A stretch of DNA of 64,000 nucleotides from Vicinamibacteria bacterium (GTDB lineage Bacteria; Acidobacteriota; Vicinamibacteria; Fen-336), in contig JAMPXO010000009.1 in NCBI GenBank assembly GCA_023701125.1, positions 5,264 to 69,263 of the forward strand, given 5' to 3'. Under the pieces are notes generated by a model. The model searched no databases. It saw only the letters and a list, made by a program, of their open reading frames with translations, and had not been told where the DNA came from. Below are positions 32,998 to 40,003 of this stretch, one piece after another. Every line of letters begins with the position of its first letter. Position 1 is the first letter of the stretch. The translations under genes were made by a program, and so were the position numbers.

Positions 32998-33417
32998 TCA
33001 GCGCCAGAGCTTCACGCCGGCGCGGCGGGCGGCCTCGCGCAGCGGACCGTCCTTGCAGGCGAGCTCCAGCCTTCGCCGCTGCGCCAGCTCGAGATAGGCC
33101 GCGTCGTAGACGGAGATCTCGTGCGTCATCGCCAACTCGGCCAGCCGCGAGAAGGCCAGCGCGGCCATCTCGTGGTCCACGCGAAGCGCGAGGCCGCCCA
33201 GCCAGCCGAGTGCCTGCTGCCGCTCCTCGGCGGTGAGCTTCTTCCTGCGGACCAGCACCGTCAGCGCGTTCGCGACCTCCAACGGCCACAGCGCCGGCAC
33301 CTCGACGGCCGCACCTTGGACCAGGGCGTCGAGCATCGACTCGGTCGCCGACGTCGCCTGTCCCGGATGTACCCAGGCCACGGCGACTGATGCGTCTGCC
33401 ACGAAGGCGGGTTTCAA
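32998..33417 (-). CDS. vapC: PIN-domain toxin VapC
   Basis: PIN fold: acidic residues (FVADASV ... YDAAYLELA). 139 aa. Confidence 0.8.
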   Translation of the reverse strand: MKPAFVADASVAVAWVHPGQATSATESMLDALVQGAAVEVPALWPLEVANALTVLVRRKKLTAEERQQALGWLGGLALRVDHEMAALAFSRLAELAMTHEISVYDAAYLELAQRRRLELACKDGPLREAARRAGVKLWR

Positions 33418-33671
33418 GCGCGCCCGTCGTCGATGGCCGCCCGGACCTCGCGGTCACTGAGGCCGGCCTTGCTCCGCCGCCGGATCTGCTGCTGCAAGCC
33501 ACGCAGGCCAGCGACGGCGCGACCCACCGCCTCCAGCCGTTGGCCTCCCTCCGGGATCACGCGAGCGACGGGCTTGTCGTGGCGGGTGATGACGATCTCC
33601 TCGCCGCGGGCCACCCGGCCCAGCAGCGCGCCGAAGTGGGTCTTGGCCTCCAGGGCCGTCACTCTGGCCAC
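33414..33671 (-). CDS. vapB: Phd/YefM-type antitoxin VapB
   Basis: 85 aa. GTG start with GGGAGGGAA RBS. ATGA overlap with vapC. TGATCA-N5-TGATCA inverted boxes in its promoter. Confidence 0.8.
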   Translation of the reverse strand: MARVTALEAKTHFGALLGRVARGEEIVITRHDKPVARVIPEGGQRLEAVGRAVAGLRGLQQQIRRRSKAGLSDREVRAAIDDGRA

Positions 33672-35954: not shown

Positions 35955-37340
35955 TCAGGCGCGCGCGGTCTCGTCGAGCCGGCGGCATCCCTCCAGCAGG
36001 AGCTGCGCGAAGTTCTCGCCCAGCGCGGCACCGCGCGCGGCGGGCCCCGGCCGGAACTCGAAGTCGCCGCGGGTCAGGCCGATCACCCCGTAGACCGCGG
36101 CCTCGGCCTCGAGCCCCGGGCCGCGTGCGCCGACGATCTCGCCAAGGGCGAAGTCCACGTCCCACGACTGCTGGCCCGAGCGCAGCTCGAGCCGGCCCGT
36201 CATGCGGCCGAGGTGACACATCTGCAGTGCGCCGGGCGCGCCGACCGCTTCCAGCCGGCCCTCGACCCCGGTGCCAGGCGCGCGGCGCTCGCGGCGGCCG
36301 AGGTCGGAGAAGCGCTTGAGGATCAGCCGCACGCGGATCAGCAACTCGCGCACCGGCGTGTCCTTGGAGAGGAACTCGTCCGCGCCGGCCTCCAGGCCCT
36401 CGTAGCGCTGCTCGTAGCCGTCCCAGCCCGAGAGGAAGATGAGCGGCACGTGGCGAGTCAGGCTGTGGGCGCGGATCTCGCGGCACAGGGCGAGGCCGTC
36501 CATGCCACTCATCGCGACGTCGGTGAGGATCAGCCACGGCCGCCGCTCCAGCGCGACGTGGACCGCCTCTTCGCCGCCCGAGGCCTCCAGCACCTCGAAG
36601 CCCTGGGCCAGGAACAGGCTCTTCAGGAAGCTGCGGAACGTGAGGTTGTCGTCGACCAGCAGCACGCTGCGCAGTGGCTGCGGGATGTCGTCGAAGCTCG
36701 GCAGCTCGGGCAGCGAGCCCGGCAGCCGGCTCGGCTCCGGCGTGGCGACGACCTCGCGGGTGGGATCGAGCTCGCGGAACAGGACGCGGGCCCCGGGTGC
36801 CGCCTGGACCGCGCCCGCGACCACCGCCCCGGCGTGGACGAGGGCCGTGCCGCCGCCCTCGACCGAGACGAGCCCGCTGCGCTGCTCGCGGCCGACCTCT
36901 TCGAGCAGCTCGCGAGCGCCGTCGGGGCCGGCGGTCTCGGCGACGGTGCCGCTGCGGTCTGCGAGCGACTCCAGGATGCGAGCGATGCGGCGCAGCAGCA
37001 GCTCGCGGGTGAACGGCTTGGTCATGTAGTCGACGACACCGTAGCGGAAGGCCTCGACCCGCGAGGTGAACTCGCGGTGAGCGGTCAGGAAGACGACGGG
37101 GCGATCGACGGTCTCGGGGTCGGCCTGCAGCGCGCGCAGCACACCGTAGCCGTCGAGGCCGGGCATCGAGATGTCGCACAGCACGAGGTCGGGCTGCTCG
37201 CGGCGCACGATCGGCAGCGCGTCGTGGGGATCGCCGGTCGAGACGACCCGGTAGCCGGCCGACCCGAGCAATGCCTCGAGCAGCTCCCGGATCGCGGGCT
37301 CGTCCTCGACGACGACGATGGAGCGCTGGCGATCGGGCAC
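35955..37340 (-). CDS. dual receiver-domain response regulator with C-terminal DUF4388-like domain
   Basis: Two REC domains (IVVVEDEPAIRELL..DLVLCDISMPGLDG and VLLVDDNLTFRSFL..LILTDVAMSGMDG). C-terminal domain GRMTGRLELRSGQQSWDVDFALGEIV. Confidence 0.75.
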   Translation of the reverse strand: MPDRQRSIVVVEDEPAIRELLEALLGSAGYRVVSTGDPHDALPIVRREQPDLVLCDISMPGLDGYGVLRALQADPETVDRPVVFLTAHREFTSRVEAFRYGVVDYMTKPFTRELLLRRIARILESLADRSGTVAETAGPDGARELLEEVGREQRSGLVSVEGGGTALVHAGAVVAGAVQAAPGARVLFRELDPTREVVATPEPSRLPGSLPELPSFDDIPQPLRSVLLVDDNLTFRSFLKSLFLAQGFEVLEASGGEEAVHVALERRPWLILTDVAMSGMDGLALCREIRAHSLTRHVPLIFLSGWDGYEQRYEGLEAGADEFLSKDTPVRELLIRVRLILKRFSDLGRRERRAPGTGVEGRLEAVGAPGALQMCHLGRMTGRLELRSGQQSWDVDFALGEIVGARGPGLEAEAAVYGVIGLTRGDFEFRPGPAARGAALGENFAQLLLEGCRRLDETARA

Positions 37341-37408
37341 GGGGGGCTAGGGTACACGAAGCGCTACCATCGCGGCAGGGCGGGCGGTTCCGTGCGCGAG
37401 GAGACCAG

Positions 37409-37738
37409 GTGGCGATCGAAGCCGTGCCGTTCACGACGACGGACTGGGCGAAGGTACCGGTGACCGAGCACCCGGGCACCACCGGTGTGGCTCGCTGGCG
37501 CACCGTCCTGCAGGGCAACGTCCGGGTCAGGATGGTCGAGTACAGCCCGGGGTACGTGGCCGACCACTGGTGCGAGCGCGGTCACGTGCTGCTGGTGCTG
37601 GAGGGCGAGCTGGTCACGGAGCTGGCGGACGGCCGCGAGGTCCGCCTGCGGCCCGGCACCAGCTACCAGGTCGGCGACGGCGTGATGGCGCACCGCTCAC
37701 GAACCGCCGGCGGCGCCCGGCTGTTCATCGTGGATTGA
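37409..37738 (+). CDS. small cupin-fold protein (DHCW-motif type)
   Basis: GTG start after GAGGAG. GYVADHWCERGHVLLVLEGEL. Confidence 0.55.
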   Translation: MAIEAVPFTTTDWAKVPVTEHPGTTGVARWRTVLQGNVRVRMVEYSPGYVADHWCERGHVLLVLEGELVTELADGREVRLRPGTSYQVGDGVMAHRSRTAGGARLFIVD

Positions 37739-37750
37739 GGCGACGCCGGG

Positions 37751-38662
37751 CTAGAGGCGGACCCAGCGGCCCGTGCGCTTCTTGTCCGCGAGCCAGGCGC
37801 CGAGCCACGGGGCGTCATCGCCCGAGGTGGCCGCCGGCCAGGTGACGCGCGCGATCACGTCGTGCTCCGGTTCGCCCGGGCGGCCCACGACGACGCCATC
37901 GTCGAGCACGCGCCAGCCCGCGACCGGGTGGACCTCGAAGGCCCCGTCCGCGAGGCTCTCGACCACCAGCGCCTTGCCGGCACGGGGCCCGGCGCAGGCC
38001 GGCAGCAGTGCGTCGTGCTCCGGGGGCGCCGCGAGCCGCGCGGCCACGCTCGCGGCGCGCGCGCGGTAGGTCGTTTCAGCCTCGCGGGCAAGGCAGGGCG
38101 CCGCGCAGGTGCGGACCTGGGCGTAGACGCAGCGCAGGCCCGTCGGCCACGCGGGGTCCGGTGCGAAGTCGAAGTCGCAGGGGCGCAGCAGGTGCTGCTT
38201 CTGCAGCGCGTCGCGGGCGCGCGTCGCCGTCTTCGCATCGCGGAACGGGCCGAAAACGTCGCCGCCGAAAGCACCGTGGGCGAGCAGCCGCGGGAAGCGC
38301 TCCGCCGTCAGCCACAGCCAGCCCGGGGGCCGCAGGTCGCGGCGGCGGGAGAGCGGCACGAGCGGGGCCATCAGCCGCTCGAAGAGCAGCCGCTCGTGGA
38401 ACGGCGAGCGGGCAAGCGCGAAGCGAATCGAGGCCGCCAGCTTCGACAGGTCGACGCGGGGTCGCGCACCCGGCTTCGGGCTCGGCCGGGCGCGGCCGAG
38501 CTGGCCGCGGGCCCAGGATCGGATCGAGGCGCCGCGGCCGACGACCAGGCTCTCGCCACGGGCGTCCAGCAACTGGGCCACGCCGCGCGCCGCCGGCAGT
38601 GCGAGCAACGCGGCAGCGAGATCCCCGGCGAGCGGCCGAAGGACGAAATCCGGAGCCGTCAC
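37751..38662 (-). CDS. UvrC N-terminal-half homolog (Cho-like) with degenerate GIY-YIG motif
   Basis: GVAQLLDARGESLVVGRGASIRSWARGQL aligns to GIY-YIG but the Tyr positions are replaced by A/V. FGPF...LRPCDFDF...CVYAQVRTCAAPCL matches the UvrC Cys-rich region. Confidence 0.6.
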   Translation of the reverse strand: MTAPDFVLRPLAGDLAAALLALPAARGVAQLLDARGESLVVGRGASIRSWARGQLGRARPSPKPGARPRVDLSKLAASIRFALARSPFHERLLFERLMAPLVPLSRRRDLRPPGWLWLTAERFPRLLAHGAFGGDVFGPFRDAKTATRARDALQKQHLLRPCDFDFAPDPAWPTGLRCVYAQVRTCAAPCLAREAETTYRARAASVAARLAAPPEHDALLPACAGPRAGKALVVESLADGAFEVHPVAGWRVLDDGVVVGRPGEPEHDVIARVTWPAATSGDDAPWLGAWLADKKRTGRWVRL

Positions 38663-38682: not shown

Positions 38683-39150
38683 CTAGACCTGGTCGTGGAT
38701 GGTGACGAGCTTGACGATCTCGAAGTGGCGAGTGCCGGACGGGACCTTGGCCTCGATCTCGTCGCCCTCTTCGCGACCCAGGAAGGCCTTGCCGATCGGC
38801 GAGCCGGGCGAGATGCGGCCCAGGGTCGGGTCCGCCTCCTCCGGGGTCACGATCGCGTAGACCACCTCGTCACCGCTCTGCACGTCGCGCACGGTGACCG
38901 TGGAACCGAGGCCGACCTTGTCGCGCGGGATCTTGTCGAGGTTGACCATCGAGAGCGCGGCGACGCGGCCCTGGAGCTGGCTGATCCGGGCCTGGATGAA
39001 GCTCTGGCGCTCCTTCGCGGACTTGTACTCCGCGTTCTCGCGCAGGTCGCCGTACTCGCGGGCGCGCTGGATCTCTTTCGGCAGGACGACCTTCAGCTCG
39101 TAGTCGAGCGTCTTGATCTCCTCTTCCAGGCGCTTCTTGATATCGTTCAT
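38683..39150 (-). CDS. greA: transcription elongation factor GreA
   Basis: [20 protein letters not shown]...[11 protein letters not shown] hallmark. Confidence 0.9.
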
Positions 39151-39199: not shown

Positions 39200-39999
39200 A
39201 TGGCCGTCGAGACCATCCGCAGCCGCAGCAACCCGCTGTTCCGTCGCCTCCGCGAGCTGCGCGAGCACGCCGCGGACGACGGCCTCGCGCTGCTCGAGGG
39301 GCCGAAGCTGATCGAGGAGGCGCTGCTGTCCGGCGTCACGGTGCTGGAAGTGGCGGCATCGCCGCGCGCCGAACGCTCCCAGCGCGGCGCGCGGGTGCTG
39401 CGCGAGCTGGCGGCGCGGGGCGTGACCGTGCGCGCGATGAGCGACGAGCTGGTGGCCTCGCTGTCCGAGGCCGAGTCGAGCCAGGGCCTGCTGGCGCTGG
39501 CGGCACGGCCGGCCTTCGACGAGGCGGCGCTGTTCGCGGGCGTGCCGCTGATCGCCGTCGCGGTCGGCGTGCAGGACCCGGGCAACCTCGGTGGCCTGCT
39601 GCGCACGGCGGAGGCCGCGGGCGCCACCGGCGCCTACCTCACGCCCGGCTGCGCCGACCCGTTCGGCTGGAAGGCGTTGCGCGGCTCGATGGGCAGCGCG
39701 CTGCGCCTGCCTCACGTGCGCGGCGTCGAGGCTGCCCTGGTCGTGTCGCGACTCAAGGCGCGCGGGGTGCGGGTGGCCGCGACCGCCACGGATGCGGCCC
39801 AGGCCTACGACGAGGCCGACCTGAAGCGGCCCGTCGCGATCCTGCTCGGCAACGAGGGCGCGGGGCTGCCGGACGAGTTGCTGCGGGCAGCGGACATCAC
39901 GGTGCGCATCCCGCTGGCCGGCCACGCCGAGAGCCTCAACGTCGGTGTCGCGGCCGGCGTCGTGTTGTTCGAGGCCGCCCGACAGCGGCGGCAGCGGCC

Positions 40000-40003
<4 letters not shown>
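39200..40003 (+). CDS. TrmH/SpoU-family RNA 2'-O-methyltransferase
   Basis: SPOUT motifs ([44 protein letters not shown]). Confidence 0.8.

Follow-up and report, generated by a model that had tools for sequence, protein, structure and literature searches.

What does a UvrC-type protein do when the nuclease motif at its N-terminus is degenerate? The question arises in a 64 000-nucleotide stretch of a Vicinamibacteria contig (JAMPXO010000009.1; 'the window' below means this whole stretch, and coordinates are counted from its first letter). A first-pass annotation made from the sequence alone described a gene next to greA whose 303-aa product resembles the N-terminal half of UvrC and Cho, with both GIY-YIG tyrosines replaced, and suggested that it is probably a nuclease-dead UvrC paralog, possibly with a regulatory or scaffolding part in NER, that had not been characterized. 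Here we call the protein X and follow that suggestion up.

The gene and its family

37751..38662, minus strand: UvrC-N-terminal-like protein X, whole ORF; 303 aa, GTG start, TGA stop

The ORF lies exactly where it had been placed. The DNA is ~75% GC and GC content at third codon positions (GC3) is 0.918, against 0.589 at second positions; such a GC3 is what a real gene in a genome of this composition should have. It is under purifying selection (dN/dS about 0.3; 0.27–0.32 in pairwise comparisons with two orthologs). High-GC DNA yields long spurious ORFs in all frames, and several database 'members' of the family are frameshifted calls, which could favor a decaying pseudogene or a spurious ORF. 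We give that reading next to no probability, as it is already contradicted by full-length orthologs at 48 genome loci (down to 40% identity), by 34 invariant columns in the family alignment, by a confident AlphaFold (AF2) model (pLDDT 89.3, pTM 0.87), and by the dN/dS and GC3 values above.

The NCBI protein MCM2254711.1, in the same 90% cluster as X, has 285 aa and so falls 18 residues short of the ORF. The first 18 residues of the ORF (38609-38662, minus strand) are conserved among orthologs, so the longer start looks right. Its NCBI name is 'hypothetical protein [Vicinamibacteria bacterium]'. Literature searches found no paper describing X or a link between a UvrC homolog and GreA, nor one on uvrC in Vicinamibacter or on a GIY-YIG pseudonuclease, which agrees with the impression that the protein had not been characterized.

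At least 207 clusters (90% identity) of the family are present in the protein database, all of 300–345 aa, and precomputed Pfam annotation of all listed members reports only PF27096 (UvrC_M), with neither UVR nor GIY-YIG. The family profile (A1) is a 61-member alignment, whose sequences are 43–52% identical except for the three closest relatives. An exhaustive profile search of 1.84 billion representatives returned 62 clusters at E≤1e-30. Nothing further appears until E~1e-25, from where on the matches are exonuclease-fused, canonical and other UvrC-like proteins, most of which cover profile positions ~15–220 only.

The 48 loci in species-representative genomes all lie in MAGs of Vicinamibacteria (Acidobacteriota), the one exception being a contig binned as Hyphomicrobium sp. 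(CAXMOH010000462.1, locus L040). Its gene block is the same, SpoU-greA-X-patatin, with identity at the level seen within Vicinamibacteria (71% for GreA), and it is probably a mis-binned Acidobacteriota contig. Many database 'members' (P0147, P0157, P0166, P0175, P0188) are frameshifted or run out of frame into neighboring genes, artefacts to be expected when genes are called on metagenome contigs of 75% GC. One of these, the 422-aa P0147, was considered as a GreA-X fusion and rejected, the ORF call crossing greA out of frame.

Relation to UvrC and Cho

Judged by sequence comparison, the homology of X to UvrC is far beyond chance. BLASTP aligns X residues 14–191 with E. coli UvrC 6–179 (E 1e-9). 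By hhalign, the family profile matches 10 canonical UvrC proteins with a probability of 99.8% (E 2.5e-28, identity 17%), over X 13–303 and E. coli UvrC 5–~345, and 13 DEDD-exonuclease/GIY-YIG fusions with a probability of 99.9% (E 8.4e-34, 24% identity), to the very C-terminus. The profile alignment that the annotation had called for thus gives a match to UvrC over the full length of X, and a partial one to Cho: E. coli Cho aligns over its residues 21–202 only (probability 93%), with the Cho C-terminal domain unmatched. 'Cho-like', the annotation's term, is apt for the UvrC/Cho-type N-terminal homology and goes too far for the remainder of Cho.

Curated models barely register the family. The best NCBIfam match of X is PRK07883 (E 2.6e-20, 72.4 bits against a cutoff of 454), over profile positions 226–418 only; the uvrC model TIGR00194 reaches 27.8 bits where its cutoff is 285.45, and matches residues 116–208 only; and NF007833, the NCBIfam Cho model, is absent among the matches at E≤10. 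A local Pfam scan of X gave no match even at E≤10, PF27096 being newer than the local Pfam copy and known here only from the precomputed annotation. PDB sequence searches with X and with the family profile returned nothing relevant, and the GIY-YIG domain was found by fold comparison only. PADLOC defence models did not match X.

In both hhalign runs the template segment that forms the UVR helices faces a gap in X, and PF02151 is on no listed member. X stops at the point that corresponds to E. coli UvrC ~345, and PF08459, PF22920 and PF14520, all carried by the canonical UvrC matches, are on no listed member of the X family. By these comparisons X is without the UvrB-binding helices, the catalytic RNase H domain and the HhH DNA-binding motif. 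Because the UVR helices are missing, the idea of X as a factor recruited through UvrB is weakened, and X has no evident route into the UvrAB pathway.

Might X nevertheless be the working UvrC or Cho nuclease of its host? Some pipelines imply as much: JGI labels several family members 'excinuclease ABC subunit C', and there are the sub-threshold NCBIfam matches to uvrC and PRK07883. We hold this to be very improbable. Model scores already contradict it (TIGR00194, 27.8 bits against 285; NF007833 and the Cho C-terminal domain unmatched), as do missing residues (those catalytic in the 3′ nuclease, see below) and missing domains (the 5′ nuclease or RNase H domain, HhH and UVR). No canonical uvrC was found within the 64-kb window or in the 53 fetched loci, and in cluster look-ups the best canonical-UvrC matches were clusters from unrelated phyla. 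To our knowledge, uvrC is nearly universal in bacteria.

Two known groups lie close to X in other respects. The fusions of a DEDD exonuclease with a GIY-YIG domain (PRK07883) are its best profile match among proteins with intact catalytic motifs; they correspond to the 'Cho-like+Exo' group of Dunin-Horkawicz et al. 2006 (PMC1564403). They keep GVY/Y[VI]GK/R, an N-terminal DnaQ-type exonuclease and a UVR segment, of which X has none. E. coli Cho (295 aa) resembles X in size, in combining GIY-YIG with a Cys-rich region, in lacking the UvrC C-terminal half, and in having no recognizable UVR segment (Cho: PMC1564403; X: hhalign), but its active site is intact.

A dismantled active site

38351..38599, minus strand: GIY-YIG-like domain (residues 22–104); fold kept, catalytic residues lost
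38495..38584, minus strand: degenerate motif block GVAQ...LVVGRGASIRSWARGQLG (residues 27–56); A29 = GIY Tyr, V40 = YIG Tyr, R43 = Lys, W50 = catalytic Arg

The AlphaFold model of X has the GIY-YIG alpha/beta fold at its N-terminus, with hairpin, arginine helix and glutamate helix. In the block GVAQLLDARGESLVVGRGASIRSWARG (X residues 27–53) the annotation had read Ala and Val in place of the two tyrosines and Arg in place of Lys. BLASTP, hmmalign, hhalign and MAFFT L-INS-i all agree on the placement of A29, V40, R43 and W50. The annotation's own caveat was that the catalytic residues might be conserved in another register; no alternative register in the four alignments restores Tyr/Tyr/Lys, and Glu is ambiguous. 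The loss in fact goes further than was reported: the catalytic Arg is Trp, the Asn of P-x-Y-N falls in a two-residue deletion in the X family, and the Lys column is variable. Residue counts at the four aligned columns of the 61-sequence alignment are as follows.

GIY Tyr column: G44 / A15 / V2
YIG Tyr column: V31 / L26 / M3 / I1
Lys column: R38 / M5 / P5 / T4 / K4 / V2
Catalytic Arg column: W60 / F1

Among 183 family sequences examined, none of the ~147 that cover the N-terminus has Tyr at the GIY or the YIG position. Neighbors of the Lys column (G27, L39, R48, W50) are invariant, and an unconstrained Lys column beside invariant neighbors points to a dismantled active site. The dipeptide E95-R96, on the 'glutamate helix', is also invariant (61/61). 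The metal-binding Glu aligns with E95 by BLASTP and, shifted by one residue, with F/Y94 by hhalign and MAFFT (three of four alignments). X may have some metal or phosphate binding through E95-R96.

Work on GIY-YIG nucleases assigns the role of general base to the GIY Tyr, contacts with the attacking water and the proR oxygen to the Arg, and anchoring of the single metal to the Glu; activity depends on both Tyr (PMC3045582). From the catalytic set of the superfamily, X has lost both Tyr, the Arg and the Asn, with the Glu ambiguous. Since the lost residues have established catalytic roles, we infer that X cannot cut DNA by the GIY-YIG mechanism.

X could still be a nuclease if its active site had been rebuilt from other conserved residues (e.g. 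E95, R96, R48, Q30, H/Q54, R67), or if it used a site outside the GIY-YIG cleft. E95 and R96 are present in 61/61 sequences and R48 and Q30 are nearly invariant, BLASTP sets E95 on the metal-binding Glu, and the YIG Tyr varies naturally in active enzymes, being Lys in Hpy188I (PMC3045582). However, the GIY Tyr is Gly or Ala in 59/61, which leaves no general-base side chain in its place; the water-positioning Arg is Trp; the catalytic Glu falls on F/Y94 in three of the four alignments; and the column equivalent to Lys varies freely (R/M/P/T/K/V), contrary to what a working site would show. A rebuilt nuclease therefore seems to us rather improbable, and both sequence and fold give good support to the description of X as a nuclease-dead protein of the UvrC type.

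Modules retained from UvrC

38240..38350, minus strand: beta-sheet motif common to UvrC (residues 105–141: RRDL, ERFPR, FGPFR); aligned to the UvrC R-D-D-K / FPR / FGPF columns
38084..38188, minus strand: Cys-rich Fe-S motif (residues 159–193), C162-X15-C178-X3-Q182-X3-C186-X3-C190; 4 Cys and Gln in 61/61
37754..37987, minus strand: C-terminal alpha/beta domain (residues 226–303); aligned to the UvrC region after the UvrB-binding helices ('RNase H1' platform domain)

X shares with the N-terminal half of UvrC (E. coli residues ~5–345) a co-linear series of GIY-YIG fold, beta-sheet motif, four-Cys Fe-S motif and platform domain. It differs from UvrC in having lost the catalytic Tyr, Tyr, Arg and Asn, in its unconstrained Lys, and in the absence of the UvrB-binding helices, the catalytic RNase H domain and HhH. 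Domain scheme and names follow Seck et al. 2023 (PMC10085695).

The annotation had pointed to a Cys-rich RPC...C...C..PCL stretch and an FGPF segment, and both are there, at X residues 160–191 and 137–140. The Cys-rich segment is the best conserved part of X (mean top-residue frequency 0.85, against 0.53–0.71 elsewhere). UvrC, for which a cluster has been assigned, has the Fe-S consensus CX6-14CX3H/QX3CX3C (PMC10085695), and X matches it except for one extra residue in the first spacer. AF2 pLDDT is low at this motif, as expected without cofactor. From the motif we infer that X carries an Fe-S cluster.

The C-terminal domain of X aligns by hhalign with E. coli UvrC ~250–345 and with the C-terminus of the exonuclease-fused relatives. 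In UvrC the segment after the UVR helices is an inactive RNase H1 platform domain (Seck et al., PMC10085695). The C-terminal 80–90 residues have about a dozen weak outgroup matches, the fuller of them in the post-UVR position, and D283, W286 and W290 are invariant in this domain. X as a whole is strongly basic (pI 10.5; family median 9.8).

The greA junction

38683..39150, minus strand: greA, directly upstream of X on the same strand, 20-nt gap; Pfam GreA_GreB_N + GreA_GreB
39200..40003, plus strand: SpoU-family RNA methyltransferase, divergent from greA; Pfam SpoU_methylase; upstream of greA in 50/50 informative loci

The annotation's remark that X sits next to greA holds beyond the window. 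In the window the greA stop codon (38683-38685) is 20 nt upstream of the X GTG, and greA is directly upstream of X on the same strand in all 50 loci having upstream sequence. From greA stop to X start the median distance is 9 nt, with a typical range of −4 to +49, and the genes overlap by 4 nt at seven loci; two larger negative gaps are start-selection artefacts. These short gaps and 4-nt overlaps indicate co-transcription: the gaps are too short for a separate promoter, and the two genes are probably translationally coupled. A promoter and terminator scan around X found none, which is weak evidence in 75% GC DNA.

Downstream of X the block varies. A patatin-like phospholipase follows X in 42/50 loci, overlapping it by 4 nt in L004 (L004:11032-12468), and in three loci the downstream gene is something else. 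Because of this variation, the greA-X junction can be said to have survived rearrangement on both sides. In the subclade of the window the patatin-like gene is replaced by a PatA-type response regulator with two receiver domains and DUF4388/PatA_N (35955-37340, minus strand).

Two further observations concern the window itself. A small Cupin_2 ORF on the opposite strand (37271-37738, plus strand) converges on the X 3′ end and fills a gap of ~400 nt; as the closest long relative (L001) has only 28 nt there, the ORF seems to have been inserted recently. A type II toxin-antitoxin pair is formed by a Phd/YefM antitoxin (33414-33671) overlapping a PIN-domain toxin (32998-33417), together spanning 32998-33671 on the minus strand.

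With a patatin-like phospholipase in the block, the ancestral operon is of mixed function, and the data are all from a single class, within which the greA link may be inherited synteny. For these reasons the coupling to greA is held as a lead, not as a demonstration of a shared pathway.

Other degenerate UvrC-like families

Degenerate UvrC N-half proteins are a recurring, unstudied theme. Two further lineage-specific families, one in Terriglobia and one in Planctomycetota/Phycisphaerae, have UvrC_M but no recognizable GIY-YIG domain, and neither they nor the X family reach any NCBIfam cutoff.

Terriglobia family. This uncharacterized family (P0187 type, 430–480 aa; Pfam UvrC_M only) comprises more than 7800 clusters at E≤1e-10. 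It belongs to the same phylum as X, shares with it the UvrC_M-only Pfam annotation and a PDP insert between Cys1 and Cys2, and is closer to X in identity than any other outgroup profile (26%, E 4.6e-29). It differs from X by Phe in place of the GIY Tyr, by a retained YIG Tyr, Arg and UVR-like segment, and by a long insert in the C-terminal domain. Its neighbors are rpe, BamD and SpoIIE. Members are often named 'excinuclease ABC subunit C' by both NCBI and JGI, and the family fails all UvrC/Cho model cutoffs. Examples are L059:6001-7410, L060:6001-7371 and L061:6001-7332 (proteins P0187, P0418-P0536).

Phycisphaerae family. The members of this family (P0214 type, ~390 aa; UvrC_M only), also uncharacterized, have like X lost both Tyr (GVF...ILLAT) and kept the four Cys; unlike X, most keep the Arg, and two listed members have a precomputed Pfam UVR match. 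The gene is always just downstream of a FabA/FabZ-like gene. Examples are L056:6001-7200, L057:6001-7158 and L058:6001-7191 (proteins P0214, P0268-P0320), and in JGI one member goes under the name 'DNA polymerase-3 subunit epsilon'.

A greA link was looked for at the loci of both families and is absent. That two of the three degenerate families are not beside greA argues against a GreA-specific mechanism.

Possible function

The reading that we prefer, with a probability of roughly 0.55, takes X for a derivative of the N-terminal half of UvrC that would bind nucleic acid and carry an Fe-S cluster, would have no catalytic activity, and would be co-expressed with GreA. X would be a cut-down descendant of the N-terminal half of a UvrC/Cho-type excision nuclease; of the UvrC modules it keeps four, in their original order, namely the GIY-YIG fold, the beta-sheet motif, a pair of helices with the four-cysteine Fe-S motif, and the alpha/beta platform domain. 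Produced together with GreA, it would bind nucleic acid and carry its cluster without catalysis. More speculatively, it could occupy or mark DNA structures without incising them, for example where DNA is damaged or unwound at a stalled transcription complex or an NER intermediate.

The Cys-rich motif being the most conserved part of X, the protein might instead be an Fe-S protein that works outside DNA repair and transcription, for example in sensing redox state or iron or in supporting a partner structurally, with greA adjacency reflecting only shared expression in a mixed housekeeping operon. The patatin-like lipase in the operon at 42/50 loci fits such a role, as do the unrelated contexts of the sister families (fabZ-like; rpe/BamD). 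Yet the whole UvrC N-half scaffold is kept co-linear, not the Cys motif alone; X is strongly basic, as expected for nucleic-acid binding; and even at loci where another gene has taken the downstream place, the greA-X gap stays within −4 to +49 nt. We consider this alternative unlikely, though it is one to be kept in mind beside the nucleic-acid-binding derivative of UvrC.

A bolder version of the latter would make X a pseudo-nuclease partnered with GreA, whose UvrC scaffold and Fe-S cluster recognize DNA that is damaged or unwound where RNA polymerase has backtracked or stalled at a lesion, and so link transcript cleavage and restart to damage handling. This is a long shot; if true, it would amount to a transcription-coupled accessory pathway not described in any bacterium.

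The 'excinuclease ABC subunit C' labels on the three families could distort repair-gene inventories in soil Acidobacteriota. For UvrC itself, the roles of the Fe-S cluster, the beta-sheet motif and the RNase H1 domain are listed as open (PMC10085695). In the X family the UvrC N-terminal scaffold, including the Fe-S motif, stays under selection after the nuclease chemistry has been lost, which points to an incision-independent function of the scaffold or the cluster. X would be a natural 'separation-of-function' protein that could help to address these roles.
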